64,000 nucleotides of DNA from an uncultured Chloroflexia bacterium (GTDB taxonomy: Bacteria > Chloroflexota > Limnocylindria > Limnocylindrales > CSP1-4). Position numbers and translations under genes: made by a program. Position 1 is the stretch's first letter, and each line of letters begins with the position of its first letter. A model generated the notes under the pieces. That model made no database searches, was not told where the DNA came from, and was given only the letters and a program-made list of their open reading frames with translations. Location of the stretch: assembly GCA_963707215.1 (NCBI GenBank), contig CAVPPB010000001.1:128001-192000 (forward strand). Direction: 5' to 3'. Positions 10,497 through 40,757 of the stretch are shown here, piece by piece.

Positions 10497-13690
<3,194 letters not shown>

Positions 13691-24505: not shown

Positions 24506-24666
24506 GGCCGCGCGATGGTAGCAGGGGTCGCCGGCCGGACGGTCAGCCGCTGGACGTGCCGAGCACCTCGTCGAGCTGCGACTCGACGTCGTCCGCGATC
24601 GGCGCCGCGGCGGTCGTGGACTCGCTACTGTGCCTCCGGGCGGCCCGGAGCGTCACGGTCCGGCCC

Positions 24667-24709
24667 TAGAATCGCGCGGACGCTCGGATCCGCTCCGGAG
24701 CGAGGGAGG
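24667..24709 (+). promoter_or_regulatory. Putative -10 box and RBS of the P-type ATPase homologue
   Basis: TAGAAT at 24667-24672; GGGAGG shortly before ATG 24714. Confidence 0.5.
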
Positions 24710-24713
24710 CTCG

Positions 24714-27464
24714 ATGTCCGTGCCGTCGGCCGCAGCGGCCACGCGACCCGATCGTCCGTGGCACGCCATGGATCCCGATGCCGTGGCGACCGCGCTCGGG
24801 GTGGAGCCGGCGCGCGGCCTCGACCCCTCGGAGGCCGCCGCCCGCCTGGATCGGTACGGCCGCAACGTGCCCCCCGAGCCGGTCCGCCCGTCCGCCGCCC
24901 GGGCCGTGCTGGGCCAGCTCGTCGCTCCGGTGCCGATCGCGCTCGGCGTGGCCCTCGTCGTGAGCCTTGTGCTCCGGGAGATCTCGGCCGCACTGCTGCT
25001 GGCCGCTGCGGTCGTCATCGACGTGATCGTCGGGGCCAACGAGACCCTGAAGGCGCGGGCGCCGGTCACGGCGATCGGGAGCCTCTGGGCGACGACCGCG
25101 ATGGTCCGTCGGGTCGGTCGGGTCATCCCGGTCAACGCGACCGAGCTGGTCCCCGGTGACGTCGTCTCGATCGGCCCGGGAGACGTCGTGCCGGCCGACG
25201 GCCGGCTGATCGACAGTGTGGCGCTCCTTGTCGACGAGGCCGATCGTGACCGGCGAGACGGCGTCCGACCGCCAAGGCGGTCCCCTTGGTCGGCGCTCCC
25301 GATGCCGCCCTGCCCGAGCGGACCAGCCTGGTCCACGCCGGCTCGCGGGTCCTCCAGGGTCGCGCGACGTTCGTCGCCACCGCCACCGGCCAGGGGACCG
25401 AGCTCGGCCGGATCGCCGGCCTGCTCGGCGCGACCGACCGGGACCCGACCCCGCTCCGGCGCCGGTTGCGCGCATCGGGGACCGCCCTGGCGCTCCTCGC
25501 CGTCGGTGCGATCGCGGTGAGCGTCGCCGTCGGCTGGTACCGGGGCGAGCCCCTGGATCGCCTGGTCCTGGTGGCGATCGGCGTGGTCGTCGCCTCGATC
25601 CCTGCGGGCCTCCCGATCTTCGTCCGGGCCACGCTGGCCGTGGGGGCCCAGCGGCTCGGCATGGCCGGGACGCCGGTCCGCTACCTTGACGCGGTCACGG
25701 CGCTCGGCCACGTCGGAGCCGTCGACGCTGGGCTGGCCGGGATCCTGACCCTGGGCCGTCCGACGGCCCGGTCCGTCTTCTACCGGGGCAGCTGGTACAC
25801 GGTCGAGGGCGATGGCGCGGCTACCTCCGGCCGGATGCTCCACGTCGCCGGGGCGACCCTGCCCGGATTCGATCGGCTTGCCTACATCTCCGCCCTGGTG
25901 ACGGACGTCGCGCTCGGCGACGACGACCCGGCCACGATCGCCTCGACCGAGGCCGCGATGGTCGTCCTGGCCGCCAAGCTCGGGATCGACGCGGATCAGA
26001 GCCGTCATGCCTACCCCCGCCTCCTGGGCCTGCCCTACGACGCCACCCTCGGGCTCGACGGCATCGGTCCATCGCCTGCCGCTCGACGGTCCCGGGTCGT
26101 CGGTCGTCACGGCCCTGGTCATCGGGACGCCGGAGGCCCTGCTCGTCCGGAGCTCTACGGCCGACTGGGGTGGTGAGGACCCGCTCGCGATCGACCCGGT
26201 CCGGCACGAGGTCGAGGCCGCCCTTGCCCGGATGCGGTCGGAGGGCATGCAGGTCGTCGCGCTCGGCGCTCGCCGGCTGACGACCACCCCCGAGGACGCC
26301 GCCGAGGAGATCGCCGCTGACCCGATGACCCTGCTCGGCGACCTGACCTTCGTCGGCCTCGTGGGGATCGTGGACCCGATCCGGCCGGACGCCCGGGCGG
26401 TGATCACGACGGCTTCCAGGGCCGGGATCGACCTCCGGGTCGTCACCGGCCGGGACCCGGTCACCGCGGCGTCGACCGCCGCCGAGCTCGGACTCGCCGG
26501 TGAGGCCATCGGTGGACCGGACCTCGCCAGCCTGTCCGACGAGACCGTGCGGAGCCGACTGACCGGTCTCCGCATCGTGGGCTGGGCGTCCGCCATCGAC
26601 CGTTTGCGGCTGACCCGCGCCCTCCAGGCCGGCGGCACGAGCGTCGCCGTCCTCTCGAACGGCGTCGTCGATGCGCCGGCGATGCGGGCCGCCGGGGTCG
26701 GTGCCGCAAGCCGGCCGGGCTCCGCCGTGACGGACCAGGCCGCCTCGGTGGTCGTCGGCGACGGCGGGCTGGCCGCCCTGCTCCGGGCGATCGCCATCGG
26801 GCGCGAGACGCGGGACCGGGTCGCCGCCTATGGCCGGCTCGCGGCGATCCAGCTCGTCGGGCTGGTGTCCCTGTTCGTGACCGCCGCACTCCTCGACGTC
26901 AACGGCGGCCTGCCGCTGGTGCCCGTCCAGGTCCTCTTCCTGGGTCTCGTCGTCACCGTCTTCCCCGTCGTCGCCATCGCCTCCGACGTGGCCGATCCCG
27001 GCGTCATGGAGCATCCGCCCGACGACCCGGATGGCGGCCCGGCCGATCGACCGACCATCCTCCGCCGGCTCGTGGCCGGGCTGGCTCTCGGGCTCGCGGC
27101 GCTGGCCGTCTACCCCGTCAGCGCTGCGATCGGCTGGGGCGAGCCGGCCTTCGACCGCGCCTCGGTGCCGATGACCCTGGCGTTCGTGACGCTGGGCTTC
27201 GGGACGATCCTGGTCGGGCTGGCCGCGCGGCGGCCCGTGGACTGGGCGTTCAAGAGCCCGTTGCCGCGGTTCCTCGGCATCCTCCTCGTACCGCTGGTGC
27301 TGCTCTTCCTCTCGACCGAGCTGGGCGTCCTGAAGGCGTTCCTCGTGACGGTCGACCTTCGCCAGGAGCAGTGGGGCGTCGCGCTCCTCCTGGGCTCGGC
27401 GGCGTTCTGGGTCATGGAGGCCGACAAGCTCCTCCAGCGACGGGTGCGCATCCGCTTCCACTAG
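24714..27464 (+). CDS. P-type (P2, Ca/cation) ATPase homologue with degenerate catalytic motifs; frameshifts near 25240-25275 and 26058
   Basis: RLDRYGRN, LVPGDVV..GDVVPADGRL, TELGRIA, FVGLVGIVDPIR and C-terminal TMs; DKTGT absent. Confidence 0.85.
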
Positions 27465-27527: not shown

Positions 27528-28247
27528 TCAGCCGTCGATCGTCCGCCGCAGCTCGGCCGCCCGATCGCGGAGGGACCGGAAGTAATCCGAGTCGGTGATC
27601 TCGGCCACCTGCCGGGCCTGGCGCGCCTCGTCGATCTCGATCCGCAGCTCGGCCACCTGCGCTCGCAGGCGCTCCTCGCGAGCCCGCACCTCGCCCGCCA
27701 TCCGCTGGAAGGTCCGGGCAAGCTGACCGAGGGCGTCGTCCCTGGCGGCCACGGCGTCGAGGGTCGCGGGATCGAAGGCATCCGCCTCCACGGCGGCGGC
27801 GGCGTCGATGACCCGCTCGACCTGTTCGAGGTACTCGCGCTCGAGGTCGCGCAACCGCTTGGCTGCCAGCCCGGCGTTGAGGCGGGCTCGCAGGATGGAC
27901 GGGTCGACGGGCTTCGGCAGGTAGTCGAGGGCGCCGAGCTCGATGCAGCGGACGACCGAATCGAGCTCGTCCACCGCGCTGATCACGATGACCGGCAGGT
28001 GGGCCAGCCGCGGATCGGCCTTCATCCGCTCGAGCGTTCCGTAGCCGTCGAGCCGGGGCATGACCAGGTCGAGCAGGACGACGTCGAACGGCGGCTCTCC
28101 GGCGCCGGCGAGGACATCGAGGGCCGCCAGGCCGTCGTCCACGGAGGTGACCGCGTGACCCTGCTCGCGCAGGAGCCGCTCGAGGAGCATCCGGTTCACC
28201 AGAGCGTCCTCGACGACCAGGACGCGGCCGCCGCCCGCCGCGGTCAT
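27528..28247 (-). CDS. Response regulator: REC + HAMP-like segment + coiled-coil tail
   Basis: VLVVED, LLDLVMP, DYLPKP; then DDALGQLARTFQRM and IEIDEARQARQVAEITDSDYF. Confidence 0.9.
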   Translation of the reverse strand: MTAAGGGRVLVVEDALVNRMLLERLLREQGHAVTSVDDGLAALDVLAGAGEPPFDVVLLDLVMPRLDGYGTLERMKADPRLAHLPVIVISAVDELDSVVRCIELGALDYLPKPVDPSILRARLNAGLAAKRLRDLEREYLEQVERVIDAAAAVEADAFDPATLDAVAARDDALGQLARTFQRMAGEVRAREERLRAQVAELRIEIDEARQARQVAEITDSDYFRSLRDRAAELRRTIDG

Positions 28248-28609
28248 GCCCTGGCCGCCACGATCTGCAGCTCCCCCGTCGCCGCCTCGAGCTCGGCGGC
28301 GATCGCCTCGACGGCATCGCCCAGCCCTTCGAGCCCACCGGATCGCGCCTGCGCCTCCAGGACCCGGCAGCGCTCGGCCAACCCCGTGGCCCCGAGGGCG
28401 GCGCTGGACGACTTGAGGGTGTGGGCCGGGCGGACGAGGTCGGCCGCGGATCCGGACTCGAGCGCGGCACGCATGGCCGCCACCTGCCCGGGGGCGTCGG
28501 CGAGGTACGCGCCGATCAGCTCGGCGAGGAACGCACGATCCCCGCCCGTCGCCTCCAGCAGCTGGTCGATGACGACTCGATCGATCGTCGCTCCAGACGA
28601 CTCAGGCAT
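28244..28609 (-). CDS. Stand-alone Hpt phosphotransfer protein
   Basis: AHTLKSSSAALGA motif in a ~120 aa helical protein. Confidence 0.92.
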   Translation of the reverse strand: MPESSGATIDRVVIDQLLEATGGDRAFLAELIGAYLADAPGQVAAMRAALESGSAADLVRPAHTLKSSSAALGATGLAERCRVLEAQARSGGLEGLGDAVEAIAAELEAATGELQIVAARA

Positions 28610-28675
28610 CCCAACCCCTCCGGCCATCGTCGATCGATCCGAGGATAGCGACCGGGTGCCGCACCCGGGATCCGC

Positions 28676-30916
28676 TCACGCCGGCCCGCCGATGCGGACC
28701 GCGTCGGCACCCTCGTGAAGGTCGAGATCCGCCGTGCCGGTCCCGTCGAGCGTCACCGGCACGGCCGGACCTGGGGTCTCGACGACCGCGGCGTCGGCCC
28801 AGGCGGACGAGTCGCCCTCTGCGTCGACCCGGTACGCCCAGACCCGAATCGCGCCTGCGACGCGTGGCTCGAGCTCGACCCGGACGTCCGCGAGCCCGCC
28901 CGCGCTCCCCAGGACCACCGTGGCGCCGTCGGCAGACCGCGCCATCGCACCGGATCTCCAGGTGACCCGGGCGGCCGCCGGCCGGCCGGTCCGGACGACC
29001 TCCAGGGCGGCGGTCCCCGCCCCCGGTCCCTCGACCCGCAGCTGGACCACGGCCCGGGGCCGGAACGCGCCACCTGACACGGCCCGAACGGCGACCACCG
29101 CGACGCCGGCGGCGGCTCCGAGGGCGGCGACTCGGGCGACCGGATCCGTCCAGATCCAGATGCCGTGCACCAGGATCGCTGCGATGAACAGGGCCGCCAC
29201 GGTCGTCACGACGAGCGGATGGCCGATGAACCCGATGACCGGTCGGGGGACGAACTCACCGCGACGCCGGGAGGCAGCCACGAGCAGCATCGGGTAGACA
29301 CCGGCCATCAGCGGCACCGCGAGGATGCCGACGACCGCGAGCGGGGCGGTGAAGTCCGCCACATCGGCCAGGATCAGGACGACGAGGATCAGGACCACCG
29401 CGACGACCGGGAGCAGCGACACGGTCGACCGGCCGCGCCGGCCGGCGATCGCGCGCTGCCACGCCGGCTGCCCGACGCCCGCCGCCCTCGAGACCGGCGG
29501 GAGCCACTCGCGGACCTGGTTGAAGAGCCCCAGGGAGCAGTAGATCGAGCCGATCCCGAGGGCCAGGACGACGTAGATCGATCCGAGGACCAGGACGACC
29601 GGGCCCGCGACCTCGGCGAGCGGCGAGATAGCGGTGCCCTCGAACCCCACGAGCGCCTCCGAGCCGACGGCCCCGTTGACCGCCAGGACGCCGAGGGAGT
29701 ACAGGCCGATCACGGCCAGCATCGCGGCGACGTTGCCGCCGAGCAGCGCCTTGCCGGTCATGTCCTCGCGCAGGAGGAGCTTCGCGGCGTTGCCGGCCGA
29801 GGTGTGCCCGAAGTAGGCCACCAGGATGACCCCGAACACGATCTGGAGCAGCCCGACCTCGAGCACGAGACCGCCCCCCGACGCGTCGATCGCAAGGTTC
29901 GCCGGATCGAGGTACGCCAGGCCGATGGCGCAGATGGCGAGGATCAGGGCGATGTTCACCGCCCCGATCACCAGGGCCGACGCGACCGTCGCGTCGAGCG
30001 CATCACGGCGCAGGAAGTACACGTTGATCGCGAACAGCAGGCCCACCCACCAGAGGAGGCCGATGCCGCTGGCGTCGGACAGCACGGAGGCGAAGCCGAG
30101 CAGGTAGGTGAGGAGCACGACCGCGTTGAAGACGAACAGCGTCACCGTGAACGCGACGGCCCCCCCGCGGCCGAGATACTCCCGGACCAGCCGGCCGAAG
30201 TAGGTCTCGCCGTAGCGCATCTGGCCGGTCCGGGTGATCGCCTCGACGAGGGCGGCCAGGGTCACGACGTTGACGAGGCCCAGGACCACCAGGAGGGCGA
30301 TCCCGGGCAGCGGGCCGATGCCCGCGACGGCGACCGGGATGGCCAGGATCCCCTCGGCGATCGTCTCGGTGAGTGCGAGCGCGAAGGCCATCCAGAACGG
30401 CGGCAGGGTCTCAAGGCGTTCGGCCGCACGCGCCCGCAGCCAGCGGAGGCGATCGCGGACGGGTTGCGGGGCCGCGAAGCTGTGATCGATGACCGCCCCG
30501 TAGGCCCGCTCGTAGGCGGATCGGACGGCGGGATCCCCGGTGCCGAGGGCCGCCGCGACCCGGGATGCCCGGCCGGCCACCAACGGGTACTTCTCCCCGA
30601 GCCGGCGAACGAGGGCGGCCCGGAGGTCCGGGTCCGGCGGGACGAGGTCGGCCCATGACGGGGCGTAGCGCTCGAGGTCCTGGACGGTCACCCGGACCGG
30701 CAGGTCACGAGCCCCGGCCAGCGCCTGGAGGAACGCCAGCTCGCGCTCCTGGACGGAGCGCTCCGTCTCGTAGGTCGCCATCGCTGCGCGCGAGCGATCG
30801 ACCAGGCGGGCGGTCCTGGCCTCGATGGCGAACAGGAGCGTCGTGACCCGCCGGGCCGGCAGCCCGGCCAGCAGCTCGCTCCTGGAGAAGAGCGGCGGGC
30901 CGGCGTCCCCGGTCAT
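28676..30916 (-). CDS. Amino-acid-permease-like (APC/HAAAP-like) membrane protein with N- and C-terminal soluble extensions
   Basis: About 12 hydrophobic segments; TETIAEGILAIP resembles permease TM1 (GxxIGAGILxLP), AYFGHTS resembles TM6. Confidence 0.65.
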   Translation of the reverse strand: MTGDAGPPLFSRSELLAGLPARRVTTLLFAIEARTARLVDRSRAAMATYETERSVQERELAFLQALAGARDLPVRVTVQDLERYAPSWADLVPPDPDLRAALVRRLGEKYPLVAGRASRVAAALGTGDPAVRSAYERAYGAVIDHSFAAPQPVRDRLRWLRARAAERLETLPPFWMAFALALTETIAEGILAIPVAVAGIGPLPGIALLVVLGLVNVVTLAALVEAITRTGQMRYGETYFGRLVREYLGRGGAVAFTVTLFVFNAVVLLTYLLGFASVLSDASGIGLLWWVGLLFAINVYFLRRDALDATVASALVIGAVNIALILAICAIGLAYLDPANLAIDASGGGLVLEVGLLQIVFGVILVAYFGHTSAGNAAKLLLREDMTGKALLGGNVAAMLAVIGLYSLGVLAVNGAVGSEALVGFEGTAISPLAEVAGPVVLVLGSIYVVLALGIGSIYCSLGLFNQVREWLPPVSRAAGVGQPAWQRAIAGRRGRSTVSLLPVVAVVLILVVLILADVADFTAPLAVVGILAVPLMAGVYPMLLVAASRRRGEFVPRPVIGFIGHPLVVTTVAALFIAAILVHGIWIWTDPVARVAALGAAAGVAVVAVRAVSGGAFRPRAVVQLRVEGPGAGTAALEVVRTGRPAAARVTWRSGAMARSADGATVVLGSAGGLADVRVELEPRVAGAIRVWAYRVDAEGDSSAWADAAVVETPGPAVPVTLDGTGTADLDLHEGADAVRIGGPA

Positions 30917-33900
30917 GCCTCCGCCGGAGGGCCGTCGCCCCTCGGGACGCGCTCGAGCGCCTCGACGAGCGCCTCGACCCGGATCGGCTTGCTGACGTAG
31001 TCGTCCATCCCGGCGGCCAGGCAGGCGTCCCGATCCTCGTCCATGGCGTTGGCGGTCATGGCGATGATGTGCGGGCGCCCCTCCGGCCAACGGGCGCGGA
31101 TCCGCCGGGTCGCCTCCAGCCCGTCGAGCTCCGGCATCTGGACATCCATCAGAACCAGGTCGTACCTGGCCGACTCGAGGGCAGCGATCACCGCTAGCCC
31201 ATCCCCAGCGACGTCCGCCGCGTAGCCCATCCGCTCGAGCAGGCGCAGGGCGAGCTTCTGGTTCACTGGGTTGTCCTCCGCCAGGAGGATCCGGAGCGGG
31301 TGGCGGGCGGCCGTCTCCGGGTCCAGGGCCGGGCGATCGGGCGCCCGCTGCACCGGGACCGCGGACGCTCCGGCGAGCGCCGTGACCACGGCGTCGTGGA
31401 GCGCCGAGAGCTTCACGGGTTTGGCCAGGTAGGCGGCCGCCAGCGGGTTCGCCCGGTCGCGATGGCCCGCGGACGACATGACGATGATCGGCAGGTCCGG
31501 TCGGACTGCGCGAGCCGCCTCGGCCAGCGCGAGCCCATCGAGCTCCGGCATCTGGAGATCCGTGATCAGGAGGTCGAGGGGCTCATCCGACCTGACCACG
31601 TCCACGGCATCCGAGGCGGATGCCGTGTCACGGGTCAGCATCCCCCAGCGACCGACCTGCGCCGCGAGGATCCGACGATTCGTCGCGTTGTCGTCCACGA
31701 TCAGGACCCGCCGGCCCACCAGATCAAGCGGCGCGAGGTCGGTCCGCGTCTCAGCGCCATCGGTCCCCGCGGGCAGCTGGACCACGAGACGGAACGTGCT
31801 GCCCTGGCCCGCCACGCCGGTGCTCTCCGCGGTGAGATCGCCGTCCATGAGCTGGGCCAGCCGACGGCTGATGACCAGCCCCAGCCCGGTCCCCCCGAAA
31901 CGTCGCGAGATGCTGGCGTCGGCCTGGCTGAAGCTCTGGAAGAGACGGCTCATCCGGTCGGGCAGGATCCCGATGCCGGTGTCGCGGACCGTGACCTCGA
32001 TGCGCCAGCGGCCGTCAGCTTCGTCGAGCCGCCGGCCGCTCGCGCGCAGCTCGACCTCTCCGGACTCGGTGAACTTCACGGCGTTCGAGAGCAGGTTCAG
32101 GACGACCTGGCGCAATCGGCCCTGGTCACCGACGACGACCCGCGGGAGGGCGTCGTCGACCGCGTAGGCGAGCTCGATGCCCTTCCGGGCTGCCGTCGGG
32201 GCGAGCAGGTCCAGGGCCGCTTCGATGACCCGTCGGAGCTCGAACGGCCTGGCATCGAGATCCACCCGCCCAGCCTCGATCTTCGAGAAGTCGAGGATGT
32301 CGTCGATGATCGTCAGGAGCGCGTCGCCGCTCGTCCGGATCGTCTCGGCGAAGTCGCGCTGCTCCTCCGACAGCGGGGTGTCGAGGAGGAGGCCGCTCAT
32401 CCCGATGATCGCGTTCATCGGGGTGCGGATCTCGTGGCTCATGGCAGCCAGGAACGTGCTCTTGGCCTGGTTAGCAGCGTCGGCCTCCCGCCGGGCCGCC
32501 TGCAGCTCGGTGATGTCGTGGTAGATGGCGTAGAACCCGGTGTGCTCGCCGTCGATGCGGAGGGGCACCATGACGATCTCGACATCGACGCCCCTGCCAT
32601 CCCGACACGAGCGGCGGCCGATCCGAGCGGAGCGTCCAGTCTCGAGCGCCTCCCTCGCCACGCCTGCCCCCTCGGCGCGCATCTCGTCGGTGCTCATGAC
32701 GAGGTCGTCGATGCGCTGCCCGATCGCCTCGACCGGTGTGTACCCGAAGAGCCGCTCGGCGGCCGGGTTCCAGCCCGACACGCGCTCGTCGCGGTCCATG
32801 GTGACGACGGCGACGGGGCTGATCTCGACGAGCGACTCGAAGTAGGCCTTCTGGCGCCGGACCTCGGCGGCCGCCTCGACCTGGCGGGTGACATCCACCT
32901 GGAAGCCGAGGACGTACGCCGCTTCCCCGTTCTCGTCGCGGATCAGCGAGTTGTCGTCACGGACCCAGACCGTCCGTCCATCCGAGGCGATGATGCGGTA
33001 CTCGCCCGTCGCGCGATCGTCGCCGACGTGGACGTACCCCTCCTCGGATCCCACGAGGTCGCGGTCGTCGGGGTGCAACACGGACTCGAAGAACCCGTCC
33101 TCGAGCCATCGCTCGGACGGATACCCGAACATGGCCTCGACCTGCGGGCTGACGTAGAGCGAGGCCCCGAGCGGGTCGCCAGGTCGGTCGATGTAGAGCG
33201 CCAGCGGCAGCTCCTCGACGAGCTGTCGGTAGCGGCGCTCGGCCTCGGCCTGGCGGGCCAGGGCCTCGGTCAGCTCGGCCGTCCGCTCCTCGACCCGACG
33301 CTCGAGGGTCTCGACGTTCTCGCGGAGCTGGGCCGTCATGTCGTTGAAGGCGGTGGTCAGCGTCCCCACCTCATCCTCGGACGTGACGGGCACGTAGGCG
33401 TCGAGGTCCCCGGCCGCGACGCTCGTGGCGGTCGTGGCGAGCCGAAGGATAGGTCTGGTGACCTGGCGAGCGATCAGCCAGATGCCGGCGGCCAGCAGGA
33501 CCGCCGACAGCAGCCCGACGATCGCGATCGTGAGCGCCAGCTCCTGGGCCGGTGCGAAGGCCTCCGCCTGCGGCAGCTCCACGACGAGGGCCGCATCGTG
33601 CTCGGTCAGCCAGCGGTAGACCCCGATGACGGGCACGCCCCGATAGTCCGTGTAGAGCGCCTGGCCGCTTCCGTGGGCGAGTGCTCGGCGGATCCCCTCG
33701 GACTCCACGCCGCTCGCGTACTCGCCCTGGCTGAGCCGGGCGTGCAGGAACCGACCGTCGGGGCCGACCAGGTACGTCGCCCCGCCCTCACCGAGGCCGG
33801 TTCCCTCGAGGACGATCCGGTCGATCCGCTCCAGGTTGAGGTTGCCGGCCAGCACGCCGACCCGGCGACCGCGGCCGTCACGGTCGAACAGCGGCGTGCT

Positions 33901-34458
33901 GACCGTGATGGTCGGGAGACCGGTGAGGGTCGACGTGTAGGCGTTCTGGACGAAGGTGTGCGAGACGCCCCGAGCGAAGAACAGCTCGCTCGCCTGGGAG
34001 GCGCCCTCGTGCTCCGGCCGCGTCGACAGCTCGACGGTCCCGTCGAGATCGAGGACGAGGAACTCCTGGGCATCGGACGTCTGCTGGACGACCACGCCGA
34101 GCGTCTTCTCCAGTGGCTCACGGGCCGCTTCGCGCTCGGCGTCGGTCGTGCTCTCGCCCAGGAAGACGCGTGCGTCGTCCCCGAGGCCCGGGATGCTGCC
34201 CACGAAGACGACGTTCCTCCGCTGCTCGTCGATCCAGCGGTCGAGCGAGTCGGCCTTGACCTCCGCTACCGCCTCGAGCCGCTCGAAGACCGAGCGGGTC
34301 AGGTCGTCCTGCGCCCGGACGTACACCACTGTTCCGACGATGGCCACGGTCAGCCCGGCGAGGACCAGGAAGTAGGCGACGAGGCGGGCCCGCAGGCTGC
34401 GGTTCCAGGGACCCGGGATCCTGGGCCCACGACGGCGACTCGAAGGCGCGGCGGCCAC
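30913..34458 (-). CDS. Hybrid sensor histidine kinase (TM-dCache-TM-HAMP-PAS-PAS-HisKA-HATPase-REC-REC)
   Basis: FLAAMSHEIRTPMN, NLLSNAVKFT, DTGIG, GGTGLGL; receivers ITDLQMP and LMDVQMP; EDEVGTLTTAFNDM HAMP. Confidence 0.93.
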   Translation of the reverse strand: MAAAPSSRRRGPRIPGPWNRSLRARLVAYFLVLAGLTVAIVGTVVYVRAQDDLTRSVFERLEAVAEVKADSLDRWIDEQRRNVVFVGSIPGLGDDARVFLGESTTDAEREAAREPLEKTLGVVVQQTSDAQEFLVLDLDGTVELSTRPEHEGASQASELFFARGVSHTFVQNAYTSTLTGLPTITVSTPLFDRDGRGRRVGVLAGNLNLERIDRIVLEGTGLGEGGATYLVGPDGRFLHARLSQGEYASGVESEGIRRALAHGSGQALYTDYRGVPVIGVYRWLTEHDAALVVELPQAEAFAPAQELALTIAIVGLLSAVLLAAGIWLIARQVTRPILRLATTATSVAAGDLDAYVPVTSEDEVGTLTTAFNDMTAQLRENVETLERRVEERTAELTEALARQAEAERRYRQLVEELPLALYIDRPGDPLGASLYVSPQVEAMFGYPSERWLEDGFFESVLHPDDRDLVGSEEGYVHVGDDRATGEYRIIASDGRTVWVRDDNSLIRDENGEAAYVLGFQVDVTRQVEAAAEVRRQKAYFESLVEISPVAVVTMDRDERVSGWNPAAERLFGYTPVEAIGQRIDDLVMSTDEMRAEGAGVAREALETGRSARIGRRSCRDGRGVDVEIVMVPLRIDGEHTGFYAIYHDITELQAARREADAANQAKSTFLAAMSHEIRTPMNAIIGMSGLLLDTPLSEEQRDFAETIRTSGDALLTIIDDILDFSKIEAGRVDLDARPFELRRVIEAALDLLAPTAARKGIELAYAVDDALPRVVVGDQGRLRQVVLNLLSNAVKFTESGEVELRASGRRLDEADGRWRIEVTVRDTGIGILPDRMSRLFQSFSQADASISRRFGGTGLGLVISRRLAQLMDGDLTAESTGVAGQGSTFRLVVQLPAGTDGAETRTDLAPLDLVGRRVLIVDDNATNRRILAAQVGRWGMLTRDTASASDAVDVVRSDEPLDLLITDLQMPELDGLALAEAARAVRPDLPIIVMSSAGHRDRANPLAAAYLAKPVKLSALHDAVVTALAGASAVPVQRAPDRPALDPETAARHPLRILLAEDNPVNQKLALRLLERMGYAADVAGDGLAVIAALESARYDLVLMDVQMPELDGLEATRRIRARWPEGRPHIIAMTANAMDEDRDACLAAGMDDYVSKPIRVEALVEALERVPRGDGPPAEA

Positions 34459-34460
34459 GG

Positions 34461-35423
34461 TCAGGGCAGCTCCTGCCCGATGGAGTCCAGGTCGAACTCG
34501 CCGGCGGCCGTCGCATAGTCCATGCCGAAGTACTCGAGCGACAGGGCCTCCAAGGTGCCATCGACATGCAACCCGCGGACGATCTCGTCGACGCGCTCCA
34601 CGAACGCGGCCTGGTCCAGGCTCGACGCACGGTCGAGGTACCCGGTCTTCTGCGTGTGGTAGGCCGGCTCCGGCAGCATCCGGAGGCCGAGGCCTCCCGC
34701 GATCGCTTCCGTGCCGACAGGCTCGCCGCACAGGAAGGCGTCGAGCTCGCCTGCGGCGGTCGCCTCCAGGCCCGGCGGCTCTGCGTCGAAGGTGACGATC
34801 TCCGGATCGTCGACGACATACACGAGCGGGGGCCCCGGCAGGACCAGCTCGTGACGGAGGTACAGCTCGTGGGTGCAGCCGGCGCAGGCCCCGACCGTCA
34901 TGCCGGACAGCTCGGCGGCGTCCCGGACGGTTGACCCGACCGGGAGGAAGAAGTTGTGCGGCGTGGCGTAGGTGGGCTGGGTCACGTACAGCCGGGTCAT
35001 CCGCTCCTCGGTGATCGCCCCCGACCCCCAGGCCACATCCCAGCGATCCCCCCAGTTGCCCGCGATGACCTGGTTCCAGGGCGGCGTGACGAAGCAGGCC
35101 TCGACGCCAAGGACCTCGGCCACGGCTTTGCCGGTGTCCGCGTCGAACCCTGCCACCTCGGGCGTGGTCAGCTGGTTCGCGGCGCATTTGGTCCCTGCGA
35201 GCCGCTCGGCGTCGTCGACGAGGAACGACTGGGGCGGGTAGGCCGGGTCGGTGGAGAGCACGATCGTCCCCCGGGCGAGCACTTCGGCGAGCTTGTCGGC
35301 GGTCGGGTCGAGGGACGGCACGCTCGACGGCGCCTGGGTCGCCCCGCCCGCCCCGCCGCATGCGGCGACGAGGACGGCGAGGAGGGCTGCGGCGACCGGG
35401 AGGGACCCGCGCTGCGCGCTCAC
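34461..35423 (-). CDS. Family-3 (polar amino acid type) solute-binding lipoprotein 2
   Basis: Lipobox LVAAC; STDPAYPP, GFDAD, DGTLEALSLEYFG. Confidence 0.85.
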   Translation of the reverse strand: MSAQRGSLPVAAALLAVLVAACGGAGGATQAPSSVPSLDPTADKLAEVLARGTIVLSTDPAYPPQSFLVDDAERLAGTKCAANQLTTPEVAGFDADTGKAVAEVLGVEACFVTPPWNQVIAGNWGDRWDVAWGSGAITEERMTRLYVTQPTYATPHNFFLPVGSTVRDAAELSGMTVGACAGCTHELYLRHELVLPGPPLVYVVDDPEIVTFDAEPPGLEATAAGELDAFLCGEPVGTEAIAGGLGLRMLPEPAYHTQKTGYLDRASSLDQAAFVERVDEIVRGLHVDGTLEALSLEYFGMDYATAAGEFDLDSIGQELP

Positions 35424-36412
35424 TCGAGAACCTGGCCGATCGCGTCGAGGTCGAACTCGCCGGCGGCCGTCGCGTAGTCCTCGCCGAAGGACTCCAGCGA
35501 CAGGGTCCGCAGCGTGCCGTCGGCGTGGAATCCCCGGATGATCTCGTTGACCCGCTCGACGAAGGCCTTGGCATCCAGGCCCGAGCTCTTGTCGACGAAG
35601 CCGGAGGGGTAGTAGGTGAAGGCGACGTCGTCGATGGACCGGAGGTCCAGGCCGTCCGCGATCGCCTGCCCGCCGACCGGATCCGCGCACAGGAAGGCAT
35701 CGAGCTCGCCGTCGCCGAGCGCCTCGAGGCCGGTCGTCTCCGTCTGGAAGGTCACGACGACAGGATCCTGGACATTGACGGCGATCTCTACGCCGGGGAT
35801 CTCGAGCTCGCCATTGAGGTAGTACTCGTGACTGCAGCTGGCACAGGCCCCGATCTCCTTGCCGTCGAGGTCGGCGGCGTCCTCGTACGGGGAGTCCGAC
35901 CGCACGAAGTACAGGTTCGGCACCGCGTAGTAGGGCTGGGTCATCCAGAGCCGGGTCATCCGGTCGGCGTTGATCGAGCCGGAGCCATACGAGATGTCCC
36001 AGCGGTCGCCCCAGTTGCCGGCCGTGATCTCCGTCCACGGCGGGACCACGAAACACGGTTCCACCCCGAGCGCGGCCGCGACCGCCTTGCCGGTCTCCGC
36101 GTCGTAGCCGGTCACCTCGTCCGCCGTGAGCTGATCCGGCGTGCAGCGAGTGTCGGCCGCTCGTGACGCTCCCTCGACCTCGAAGGACTGCGGGGGATAG
36201 GCCGGGTCGGTCGACAGCACCAGGGTCCCCCGGGCAAGGATCTGGGCGAGCTTGTCCGATGCGGGATCCCTGCTCGGGTCGGCGGACGGGACCGGTGTAC
36301 CGCCGGCCCCACTCGCGCACCCCACGACCAGCGCGGTCGACAGTGCCAAGGCGAGGCCCAGGGTGAGCGCGTGGGGCCTGGCTCGCGGCGATCGATCGAG
36401 GGACGCTGGCAT
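35420..36412 (-). CDS. Family-3 solute-binding lipoprotein 1
   Basis: Lipobox VVGC; STDPAYPP, GYDAE, TQPYY, DGTLRTLSLESFG; paralogue of its neighbour. Confidence 0.85.
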   Translation of the reverse strand: MPASLDRSPRARPHALTLGLALALSTALVVGCASGAGGTPVPSADPSRDPASDKLAQILARGTLVLSTDPAYPPQSFEVEGASRAADTRCTPDQLTADEVTGYDAETGKAVAAALGVEPCFVVPPWTEITAGNWGDRWDISYGSGSINADRMTRLWMTQPYYAVPNLYFVRSDSPYEDAADLDGKEIGACASCSHEYYLNGELEIPGVEIAVNVQDPVVVTFQTETTGLEALGDGELDAFLCADPVGGQAIADGLDLRSIDDVAFTYYPSGFVDKSSGLDAKAFVERVNEIIRGFHADGTLRTLSLESFGEDYATAAGEFDLDAIGQVLE

Positions 36413-36429
36413 GGACGCTCCTGAGTTGA

Positions 36430-37198
36430 CTAGGGGGGCGGCGCGGCGACGAGATCGGCGGCGATCGCACGGTAGCGCGCCGCGAGCTCGTGCTGTGGGT
36501 AGCGCAGCGCGAAGACACCTTCGCTGGCCAGTCGCATCAGGTCGTCGGAGTGCGGCAGCACGGCCGCCACGTCGCAGCCATACGCCTCGCGGACCCGCTC
36601 GGCGACGACCTCCGGCGGGATGTCGCCCGGGGCCTTGTTGACGAGGATCGAGATCCGCGGGACCTCCAGCTCGCGGGCGACCCGGACCGTGATGCCGGTC
36701 CCCTCGTAGTCCTGGCGGTCGGGGCGCATGATCACCAGGAGCGACTGCGAGATCACGAGGGAGAGGAGGGTCTCCTCGTTGAGCCCAGGGTGGGTGTCGA
36801 TGAACAGGACATCGAGGCCGAGCTCGGCGACCAGGTCGCGCAGGCCCTCGGTCAGCCGCTGGGCGTCGTAGCCCTCGCGGAGGACCCGGGCGATCTCGCC
36901 CGGCTGCATGCTCGAGGGGATCAGGTACAGCTTGCCGGCAAGCGGGACGCCCTGGCGCTCGGTCACGTCGAGGGCGACCTCGCCGATCGGCCGGCCATGC
37001 CAGAGGAAGTCGTTGAGCGAGCCCAGGAACGTCCTCGCCGGCAAGGCCGAACAGGACGTGGATGCCCGGTGACTGGATGTCGGCGTCGATGACCCCGACC
37101 CGGCGCCCGTCGGCCGCCAGGCAGGCGGCGAGGTTCGCGGTGGTGTTGGACTTGCCGGTCCCACCCCGGAACGAGTGCACGGACACGATGGTCGCCAC
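36430..37198 (-). CDS. MinD/ParA-family ATPase (one frameshift at the C-run 37022-37024)
   Basis: IVSVHSFRGGTGKSN, VIDADIQSPG, FIDTHPGLNEE, ILVNK; GGAGG RBS. Confidence 0.9.
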
Positions 37199-37246
37199 CG
37201 ACGCGCCCCTCCCGCCGCCCGAGCGGCCGTGCTTCCTTGGCGGCGG

Positions 37247-37252
37247 ACTATA
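37247..37252 (-). promoter_or_regulatory. Putative -10 box of the signalling operon
   Basis: TATAGT on the minus strand about 50 nt upstream of the MinD-like start; rare AT-rich hexamer in this GC context. Confidence 0.55.
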
Positions 37253-37300: not shown

Positions 37301-39593
<2,293 letters not shown>

Positions 39594-39601
<8 letters not shown>

Positions 39602-40757
39602 GTCTCTGCCTCCGATCCCCCCTCGGCCCGAGTGGTCCCTCCTGGTACGAGGCACCGACCGCCTGGTCCGCCGTCACCACCTCGCCCACCACCACGGCGC
39701 TCACCCCCCGGTCCGCGAGCCACCGGATCAGCGTCGGGACGTCGGCGCCGTCGACGATCGCGATCATGCCGAGGCCGGCGTTGAAGGTCGCCCGGAGCTC
39801 AGCGTCGTCGATCCCGGCCAGGGCGGCGATCAGGCGCATCTCCGTCGGGACCAGCCAGCGCGTCGGGTCGAGCCTCGCCGCGAGGCCGTCGGGGAGCGCC
39901 CGGGGCACGTTGCCGGGCAGGCCGCCCCCGGTGACGTGGGCGAGGGCGTGAAGGTCGGAGCCCCCGGCTCGCAGGGCCGCCCGGGCCGCCAGCACGTCCG
40001 CCGCGTAGATGCGGGTCGGTGTCAGGAGGACCTCGCCGAGGGTCGCTTCGCGTCGCTCGGGCGCCTCCGCCAGCACCTGCGCCGCCGCGTCCGGCCCCAG
40101 GGTTCGCTCCACGAGGGAGACGAAGCCAGTTCCCAGGGCGAGGTCGTGCTCGTCGAGGACGCTCCGGACGAGCGAGTAGCCGTTCGCATGGAAGCCGCTC
40201 GAGGCCAGCCCCACGAGCACATCGCCGGCCCTGACCGCGGAGCCGTCGAGGGCGAGGTCACGCTCCACGACGCCGACGCAGAAGCCGGCCAGGTCGAGCG
40301 CCTCGGGTGGCATCAGGCCGGGGTGCTCGGCCGTCTCCCCGCCGACCAGGGCGCAGCCGGCGGCCCGGCAGCCCGCGGCGATGCCGCCGACGACGGTCGC
40401 CACCCGGTCCGGGTCCAGCCGTCCGACCGCCAGGTAGTCAAGGAAGAAGAGCGGGGCGGCGCCGGCGCAGACGACGTCGTCGGCGCACATCGCCACGAGG
40501 TCCAGGCCGATGGTGTCCCAGCGGTCGAGCGCAGAGGCGATGGCCGTCTTGGTCCCGACCCCATCGGTCGCCGAGACCAGCAGCGGGTCGACCATCCCGG
40601 TCGGCAGCACCGTGGCCCCGGCGAAGCCGCCGAGCCCGCCCACGACCTCGGGCCGGCGGGTCGACTCGACCGCGGCCCGGAGCAACTCGACGGCTCGCTC
40701 GCCCGCCACGACGTCCACCCCGGCCGCGGCGTAGGCATCCCTTGCGCCCGAGCTCAT
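39594..40757 (-). CDS. purM: AIR synthetase
   Basis: YAAAGVD, TDGVGTK, GGETAEHPG, HVTGGGL, TFNAGLG. Confidence 0.97.

Follow-up and report, generated by a model that had tools for sequence, protein, structure and literature searches.

Organization of the locus

The 64-kb window (the whole 64,000-nucleotide stretch of DNA analyzed here, from an uncultured Chloroflexia bacterium) carries seven co-oriented genes on its minus strand, which encode an ATPase of the MinD/ParA superfamily, two solute-binding proteins (SBPs), a hybrid histidine kinase, a permease-like protein, an Hpt phosphotransfer protein, and a response regulator. The genome to which the window belongs (G000) is 3.26 Mb long, lies in 5 contigs, and is 84.8% complete. 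The close homologs that bear a name come from Candidatus Limnocylindria, which makes this class of Chloroflexota the probable class of the host. The locus consists of two cassettes, a sensor cassette made up of the two lipoprotein SBPs, the dCache hybrid kinase, and Hpt, and an output cassette made up of the ATPase, the C-terminal tail of the regulator, and the N-terminal domain of the permease. Its features are as follows (nt, nucleotides; aa, amino acids; TM, transmembrane helix).

37247..37252, minus strand: TATAGT, a -10-like hexamer 54 nt upstream of the ATPase start
36430..37198, minus strand: MinD/ParA-superfamily (SIMIBI) ATPase of the RGGTGKS type, ~255 aa, interrupted near 37028 by a single extra base
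35420..36412, minus strand: SBP1, a family-3 solute-binding protein with a lipoprotein-type signal (VVGC), of a kinase-associated clade
34461..35423, minus strand: SBP2, a paralog of SBP1 (58% identical) with a lipoprotein-type signal (VAAC)
30913..34464, minus strand: hybrid histidine kinase, TM-dCache-TM-HAMP-PAS-PAS-HisKA-HATPase-REC-REC; start uncertain, CTG 34464 or GTG 34458
28676..30916, minus strand: permease-like protein, 746 aa, with an N-terminal helical domain, an APC/LeuT-fold membrane domain, and a C-terminal beta domain
30398..30895, minus strand: portable N-domain of the permease, ~165 aa, all-helical
28244..28609, minus strand: Hpt phosphotransfer protein, His63; alternative start 28627
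27528..28247, minus strand: response regulator with REC (9-123), a HAMP-like segment, and a C-terminal tail
27534..27713, minus strand: regulator tail, ~60 aa, conserved, a putative output module

An earlier note on this DNA had described a co-oriented seven-gene operon behind a TATAGT box, without genes for an ABC permease or ATPase, minC, minE, or parB, and all of these points were confirmed, with intergenic gaps of 17, -4, -4, -4, 66, and -4 nt. The hexamer, at 37252-37247, is one of two matches to TA[TC]A[AG]T on both strands of the window; a strict sigma-70 scan found no full -35/-10 pair, and 7 of 10 related loci have a TAnnnT sequence 26 to 60 nt upstream. Pfam matches on the operon proteins comprised SBP_bac_3 (twice), the series dCache-HAMP-PAS-PAS-HisKA-HATPase-REC-REC, a partial Aa_trans, Hpt, and REC.

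The reading frame of the ATPase gene is interrupted, a point absent from the earlier note: the extra base near 37028 divides it into codons 1 to 54 and a second frame of 200 codons. This base is missing in one contig from each of two public runs (~94% identical), and P0121, an intact relative of 255 aa, shares 93% identity with the second ATPase piece. Frame changes were found in 4 of the 23 genes tested by tblastn, the ATPase gene and the NAD-dependent DNA ligase gene of the window being among the four. The ligase gene (10874-12975, minus strand) has two frame changes, near 12111 and 11711, which are a sign of indel errors in the assembly, and an assembly error is likewise the likely cause of the frameshift in the ATPase gene.

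The regulator tail and the RGGTGKS ATPase

Pfam recognized REC alone in the regulator, with no helix-turn-helix (HTH), GGDEF/EAL, PP2C, or cyclase domain, and to this extent the earlier description of a regulator without a classical output was upheld; it had, however, overlooked a definable nonclassical output in the C-terminal half, which consists of a HAMP-like segment and a conserved tail. Of 3,661 candidates, 1,496 proteins matched residues 140 to 239, with identities of 73 to 100% in the top 120. The HAMP-like segment gave weak matches to NCBIfam HAMP-region models (residues 131 to 239), and one homolog had a Pfam HAMP match. The tail begins with a heptad coiled coil, followed by I-x-I-D, Q-V-x-E-I-T-x-[TS]-[DE]-[YF]-F-x-x-L, and an invariant Arg. 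It had no Pfam match and no PDB sequence match below an E value of 0.8, and the ERT signature of the S-helix, as given in the available part of PMC1592074, was not found in it, the column table reading R-E-x-x-L with no conserved Thr there.

A profile of the tail found 2,506 clusters at an E value of ≤0.001 among 1.84 billion 50%-identity representatives, and in 139 of the best 150 clusters the tail ended ≤30 residues from the C terminus. We scanned 58 of the 64 tail carriers in ATPase loci, leaving out 5 truncated proteins and 1 read-through; 12 of the carriers had REC, 13 had a cyclic nucleotide-binding (cNMP) domain, 13 contained GAF, 15 were other HAMP or Cache-HAMP proteins, and 5 had no family, and none of the 58 carried an enzyme or DNA-binding output. 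The 71 of the 150 best tail representatives that had at least 280 aa were also scanned. This set added MASE1, WD40-dCache, and HisKA-REC proteins, as well as a complete hybrid kinase and an nSTAND1 protein whose tails are in tandem; GGDEF, EAL, PP2C, cyclase, and HTH domains were absent from all 71 at an E value of ≤1e-6. An nSTAND1 NTPase (P0277) ends in three tandem copies of the distal helix of the tail. Because the tail is C-terminal on sensor proteins without an enzyme or DNA-binding output, it occupies, by its position, what would be the slot of an output domain.

A GTDB scan for the ATPase gave at least 617 pattern matches, 609 of which were confirmed, and the best 80 loci, mostly from Chloroflexota, were analyzed. 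The samples contain related genomes, so we give counts instead of a statistical test. A tail gene lay within 10 kb in 48 of the 80 ATPase loci and in 27 of the 32 full-length ones. Among 201 Chloroflexota genomes, 32 carried the tail and 30 carried the ATPase, every one of these 30 being tail-positive, and 169 genomes had neither; among 301 Actinomycetota genomes, the corresponding numbers were 7 and 6, again with all 6 tail-positive, one of the six being the center genome of the sample. In 72,556 plasmid records, the ATPase occurred in 14 and the tail in 7, all 7 among the 14, and a profile search placed a tail beside a Rhizobium copy of the ATPase. The two persist together while other neighbors change in Chloroflexota, Actinomycetota, Cyanobacteria, Deinococcus, Alphaproteobacteria, and Desulfobacterota, and no other universal partner was found among 60 recurring neighbor families. 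Out of 40 close relatives, one (G012) had the ATPase; its operon is nearly identical and likewise follows purH, an additional kinase being present and no Hpt match found. A complex prediction for two ATPase chains with ATP and Mg and two tails gave a median of 0.61, compared with 0.47 for a single unrelated control, and is counted neither for nor against binding. The earlier note had proposed that the output works through protein interaction, plausibly with the MinD-like ATPase, and because the regulator tail and the ATPase family co-occur almost perfectly, gene content supports this proposal.

The solved structure nearest to the ATPase was archaeal MinD-1 (1hyq; full-length match, E value of 1.7e-20). 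A deviant Walker A motif, the catalytic Lys (Lys16), the switch I Asp (Asp38/40), and the Walker B Asp (Asp134), all conserved in the family, place it in the ParA/MinD (SIMIBI) superfamily, and the signature Lys is replaced by Arg in 87 of 87 alignment rows, which were partly selected by that motif. It scored below every curated NCBIfam cutoff (38 of 213 bits for TIGR01968, 72 of 202 bits for TIGR01969, and 33 of 158 bits for TIGR03371). A C-terminal amphipathic membrane-targeting helix was not found in the aligned family, the median extension past the core being 2 residues and 77 of 87 sequences having no Phe or Trp in the last 11. The Arg residues of the C-terminal region of ParA presumably have a DNA-binding role; no such basic patch was found in an hhalign comparison, in which the Arg positions of the genome's C4 ParA aligned to nonbasic residues, including His216 and the conserved Asp219. 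The alignment to the C1 ParA of the genome was unreliable in its C-terminal part. Net charge was dropped as a discriminator from ParA, the genome's own ParA being equally acidic.

MinE was not found in this incomplete genome, and minC is not in the operon, MinC not having been searched for genome-wide; chemoreceptor (MCPsignal) and bacterial microcompartment (BMC) genes were not found in the genome either. The operon has no ParB, and two ParA-ParB-like pairs lie elsewhere in the genome; at G000:C4:67712-69433, ParA and ParB-like genes read through as one open reading frame (ORF), either a real fusion or another assembly error. The usual matrix anchors of positioning ATPases are a membrane helix or a basic patch, according to the available text of PMC11407121. 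Because the ATPase has neither the membrane helix of MinD nor the basic patch of ParA, its sequence makes cargo positioning unlikely, and with chemoreceptor and BMC genes also not found, the spatial positioning of the PpfA or McdA kind that had been suggested earlier is not supported.

In other loci, the neighbors of the ATPase include SpoIIE/STAS/anti-sigma clusters, cyclases, extracytoplasmic function (ECF) sigma factors, HEAT-cNMP membrane proteins, and NHLP peptide exporters. The ATPase closes SpoIIE/STAS/GlgX/AGE-epimerase clusters in L006, L011, L029, L061, and L063, which we take to resemble the icfG cluster of Synechocystis. On three cyanobacterial plasmids (L007, L008, and L009), NHLP/Nif11 peptide clusters and ABC exporters are flanked by ATPase and tail genes, together with DUF7005 and cNMP-binding genes. 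Second paralogs of the ATPase that have no GG-x-GK[ST] motif adjoin the intact copy in L027, L030, L032, L033, L067, L086, and others and are possible pseudo-ATPase partners.

The portable domain of the permease and the sensor cassette

The model of the permease (pLDDT of 75.9) had an APC/LeuT fold, with AdiC, BasC, LAX3, and CAT as the best Foldseek matches (E values of ~5e-7, TMt of 0.6-0.7), and its Aa_trans match reached 37 bits at residues 174 to 279. The YFGH of TM6 is kept, and TM1 reads A-E-G, compared with G-A-G in 8 of 16 aligned homologs, a motif that we take to mark the substrate site. The N-domain was found in 24 of the 80 ATPase loci. Because it directly follows the ATPase in 21 of these 24 loci and has a close kinase in only 9, the permease appears to track the ATPase and not the kinase, and it is more likely a target or partner of the ATPase than a co-sensor of the kinase, a role that the earlier note had mentioned as known for secondary transporters. 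The same tail-permease-ATPase run is present on the Nostoc C057 plasmid. A permease profile matched 8 of the 201 Chloroflexota genomes; 6 had the full protein, all with the ATPase and tail, and one genome (G230) had the membrane part alone, without the N-domain and with neither ATPase nor tail.

The N-domain was also found apart from this permease. It heads a chromate transporter beside the ATPase in G127, the remaining one of the 8 genomes with a permease-profile match, and stand-alone N-domain proteins of ~180 aa, with a short basic-aromatic helix at the end, adjoin the ATPase in three Actinomycetota (L144:4333-4881, L145:2678-3214, and L146:5241-5777). Its profile matched 5 of the 301 Actinomycetota genomes, all ATPase-positive, and 10 of the 201 Chloroflexota genomes, 8 of them ATPase-positive, which makes 13 of 15 N-domain genomes ATPase-positive. 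Diverged N-domains were located on cNMP/NTE-P-loop/patatin proteins (L156:1-1947, L158:1255-3177, and L160:1270-3195). By this distribution, the N-domain is a second portable module, on proteins that look like effectors. No family or fold match was found for it (best VIA Z of 4.3, no Foldseek match at an E value of ≤0.001, and no usable lead in the ESM Atlas), which is no proof of a new fold. In all 24 aligned copies, its last helix is basic and aromatic; the hydrophobic moment of this helix, which bears on the idea of a membrane anchor, had a median rank in the top 26% of windows.

A small winged-helix-like module stands alone beside the ATPase in other loci, is fused inside a loop of the permease in L043, L055, and L059, and lies behind a tail at L061:10990-12510. 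The label was given by eye, with no Pfam or NCBIfam match, and the module was not found in this incomplete genome.

The operon contains all phospho-acceptor domains (by Pfam) and motifs of the His-Asp-His-Asp relay described in the earlier note, which supports the predicted relay. The motif positions are His676, Asp968, and Asp1106 in the kinase, His63 in Hpt, and Asp60 and Lys112 in the regulator; that the kinase carries two receiver domains had not been recorded before. Homologs of the SBPs across the class (tally, 36/151, including G331, which nothing else reported here depends on) form two groups. All 26 loci examined for the distant group (30 to 36% identity) have an ABC ATPase beside the SBP gene, whereas none of the 6 loci of the close group (49 to 64% identity) outside the window does; in 5 of these 6 a dCache kinase comes immediately after the SBP gene, and in the other one the SBP gene stands alone. 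Because close-clade SBPs precede a dCache kinase while distant-clade SBPs adjoin an ABC ATPase, genomic context supports the earlier view that the two SBPs are putative co-sensors of the kinase. The possibility that they serve the genome's ABC system was rejected, since that system has its own SBP on C3.

In the neighborhood survey of RGGTGKS ATPase loci that the earlier note had recommended, SBP homologs were found in 1, Hpt in 9, and the kinase core in 21 of the 80 loci. The SBP-kinase cassette is also present in two relatives, G345 and G339, neither of which gave an ATPase or tail match; the G345 run, SBP-SBP-kinase-kinase-Hpt, has a REC-adenylate/guanylate cyclase as its last gene. The seven genes as one conserved unit were rejected on these counts. 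Judged from gene content, the sensor half is exchangeable and is used by relatives without the ATPase. At L133:2533-14599, the SBP-SBP-kinase-Hpt cassette that ends in a REC-adenylate/guanylate cyclase lies downstream of an ORF that looks, by eye, glutamine-synthetase-like.

Neither YxxxxRxW, the amino acid motif of dCache_1AA sensors in the available part of PMC8915833, nor RxW was found in kinase residues 41 to 330 (dCache), which fits sensing through the SBPs. The pairing of SBP genes with a dCache receptor is a known arrangement, as described in the text available of PMC8050422. The amino acid-like signal proposed earlier keeps the SBP family and the APC fold as its sole basis, the dCache domain not having the amino acid motif. 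Apparent SBP fusions (P0241-P0245) were not used as Rosetta evidence, four resembling frameshifted read-throughs and P0241 resembling two adjacent genes run together; they show only SBP genes beside dCache kinases. Both SBPs (34461-36412, minus strand) have additional conserved cysteines, namely a C-x-x-C within GACA[SG]C and three others, which are unusual for family-3 SBPs and could possibly form disulfides or a metal/thiol site.

Proposed mechanism, alternatives, and related systems

With about even confidence, we propose that the locus is a two-part signaling operon whose output would be a protein switch on the ATPase and the transporter and not transcription. The two lipoprotein SBPs would bind a small polar solute outside the cell and dock on the dCache domain of the kinase, as context and precedent suggest, and phosphate would then flow from the kinase through its receivers and Hpt to the regulator along the relay residues present. 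Phosphorylation of REC would shift the HAMP-like coiled coil and alter the presentation of the C-terminal tail. The tail would be a dedicated partner helix of the RGGTGKS ATPase that sets its ATP-dimer or hydrolysis state, much as MinE, ParB peptides, and BcsR act on their ATPases; co-occurrence is the basis of this step, and from it we infer binding. The ATPase, having no membrane or DNA anchor of its own, would act on proteins with the ~165-aa helical domain, and here the target would be the APC-fold permease, whose solute transport or signaling state would be switched after translation. A broader proposal, held tentatively and with slightly less than even confidence, is a widespread G-protein-like signaling class in which thousands of REC, cNMP, GAF, and Cache-HAMP sensors would act through one tail on the RGGTGKS ATPase and from there on effectors with a second portable domain. 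These effectors, equally tentative, would be the APC permease here and a chromate-type transporter or a stand-alone adaptor elsewhere.

Several observations weigh against the proposed switch. The ATPase gene is frameshifted in the assembly. Every link is a genomic one, related genomes do not count as independent cases, and the 80 loci were the top matches of a pattern search. The tail occurs without the ATPase in G118 and G625 (full tails in fragmented assemblies) and in G176 (a partial match); in G118 the tail gene lies near a contig end, and an ATPase of this kind was not found there. No tail is nearby in 5 of the 32 full-length ATPase loci or within 10 kb of the one Streptomyces plasmid copy examined (38% identity). 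Diverged N-domain copies on cNMP-patatin proteins in G053 and G078, where neither ATPase nor tail was found, count against an obligate link to the ATPase. The N-domain is present in 8 of the 30 ATPase-positive Chloroflexota genomes and absent from most ATPase genomes; therefore, the permease would be one of several possible targets. Because its TM1 reads A-E-G instead of G-A-G, transport is uncertain, and the permease may not transport at all. The direction of control is not fixed, the results being compatible with the permease as target or as input.

If the permease were a transceptor, that is, a second input, the N-domain and the tail would each signal to the ATPase, and the end point of the pathway would lie elsewhere, with the winged-helix-like partner or SpoIIE/STAS/anti-sigma proteins as candidates and gene control of the FleN/FleQ kind. 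The altered TM1 motif (x-E-G in this copy, L013, and L023) is consistent with such a role, as are the winged-helix-like family, which stands beside the ATPase in many loci and in some is fused in the permease or placed behind the tail, and the recurrence of SpoIIE/STAS/RsbW-like, ECF sigma, and cyclase genes. However, that family carries a by-eye label and was not found in this genome, the operon has no sigma factor or partner-switch gene, and the chromate transporter and the phospholipase that the N-domain heads in other genomes are effector-like; we consider a transceptor unlikely. A positioning ATPase that places a signaling complex or other cargo, with the tail as a cargo adaptor comparable to TlpT for PpfA or McdB for McdA, is quite improbable. 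It would be in keeping with the superfamily and the MinD-1 match and with a tail that is a short helix with conserved basic residues, and the last helix of the N-domain could supply a membrane anchor in trans, but the hydrophobic moment of that helix is unremarkable, both of the usual matrix anchors are missing from the ATPase, and MinE, chemoreceptor, and BMC genes were not found in the genome.

The tail and the ATPase might instead be co-inherited parts of a mobile signaling island that make no contact, the tail dimerizing, polymerizing, or binding another partner. The patchy distribution among close relatives fits gain and loss of an island, and over its first half the tail is an ordinary heptad coiled coil, but all other neighbors vary by locus while these two persist across six bacterial groups with no other universal partner, and we regard this explanation as very improbable. 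NAD-dependent DNA ligase is normally essential, and the frame changes in its gene in the same window, together with those in 3 of the 22 other tested genes, the ~94% identical strains without the extra base, and the six remaining operon genes, all whole, make it hardly credible that the extra base near 37028 marks a true pseudogene in this strain, with the operon decaying or working without its ATPase.

Among known systems, BcsRQ is by analogy the nearest working parallel to the proposed switch, and the present ATPase is not a member of it. BcsRQ consists of a SIMIBI ATPase and a short helical partner that control a membrane export machine (PMC7840130, available part). The two are alike in having Arg in place of the signature Lys (RGGVGTT for BcsQ in Table 1 of PMC9178275, also available in part), in the short helical partner, and in a membrane transport machine as the target. 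They are unlike in that the catalytic Lys is kept here and absent in BcsQ, that the TIGR03371 score falls far below its cutoff, and that the partner helix here is the tail of many sensor proteins; no cellulose (bcs) genes were found among the recurring ATPase neighbors. MinD-MinE, ParA-ParB, McdA-McdB, and PpfA-TlpT share the ATPase fold and a short partner helix as the likely activator (available parts of PMC11407121 and PMC9178275). Here, in contrast, the signature Lys is Arg, no membrane helix, basic DNA patch, or known cargo was found, and the partner element is C-terminal after HAMP or GAF instead of an N-terminal peptide. In FleN(FlhG)-FleQ, a MinD-like ATPase serves regulation and not positioning; unlike that system, the ATPase loci have no sigma-54 activator or flagellar genes, and the input would come from phosphorelay, cNMP, or GAF sensors.

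LuxQ is a hybrid kinase that uses an Hpt. LuxP-LuxQ, HptA-HptS, ScrB-ScrC, and NspS-MbaA all have an SBP gene next to a dCache receptor and no transporter, and ScrB is likewise an SBP_bac_3 protein (PMC8050422, available part). The present sensor cassette is an already known kind of SBP-dCache sensor, and it differs from these in having two tandem SBPs and a relay that ends in the tail and ATPase or, in G345, in a REC-cyclase. In eukaryotes, SLC38A9-Rag ties an APC/LeuT-fold membrane protein to a signaling switch via a cytosolic extension. The same likeness holds for CbrA-type transporter-linked sensors in the portion available of PMC13022988. Unlike both, the permease here is not fused to a kinase, and its link to a SIMIBI ATPase would run via a portable domain without a family or fold match.

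The usual recipients of signals from HAMP and receiver domains are kinases, cyclases, phosphatases, the tips of chemoreceptors, or DNA-binding domains. An output composed of tail, ATPase, and effector domain appears to be without a described equivalent: no published description of a tail-ATPase output was found, including by the motifs RGGTGKS, HSFRGG, and FRGGTGK, in a search whose scope left out most subscription papers and supplements. The ATPase family was not found in the available parts of 10.1101/2022.06.09.495121 (whose ATPase tables could list members), PMC1592074, and PMC11109136, and the available text of the last does not mention MinD, ParA, or HAMP. If the proposal is correct, the 60-residue tail, which spans ~2,500 sequence clusters and is nearly always accompanied by a single subfamily of ATPase, would add one more general route for output. 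It would also assign a function to many "output-less" sensors in Chloroflexota, cyanobacteria, and actinobacteria, and a MinD-type ATPase would be serving as a signal switch on transporters. The proposal can be tested with three small soluble proteins, the ATPase, the tail, and the stand-alone N-domain, and cultured hosts include Nostoc punctiforme, Herpetosiphon geysericola, and Longilinea arvoryzae.

On either side of the operon, the window contains genes of other kinds. Directly upstream (37301-39655, minus strand), one ORF reads by eye as a PurN-PurH fusion. On the other side (24630-27464, plus strand), a cation-transporting P-type ATPase gene, convergent with the operon, is spread over three frames, and a fuller paralog of it lies at G000:C1:568873-571401.

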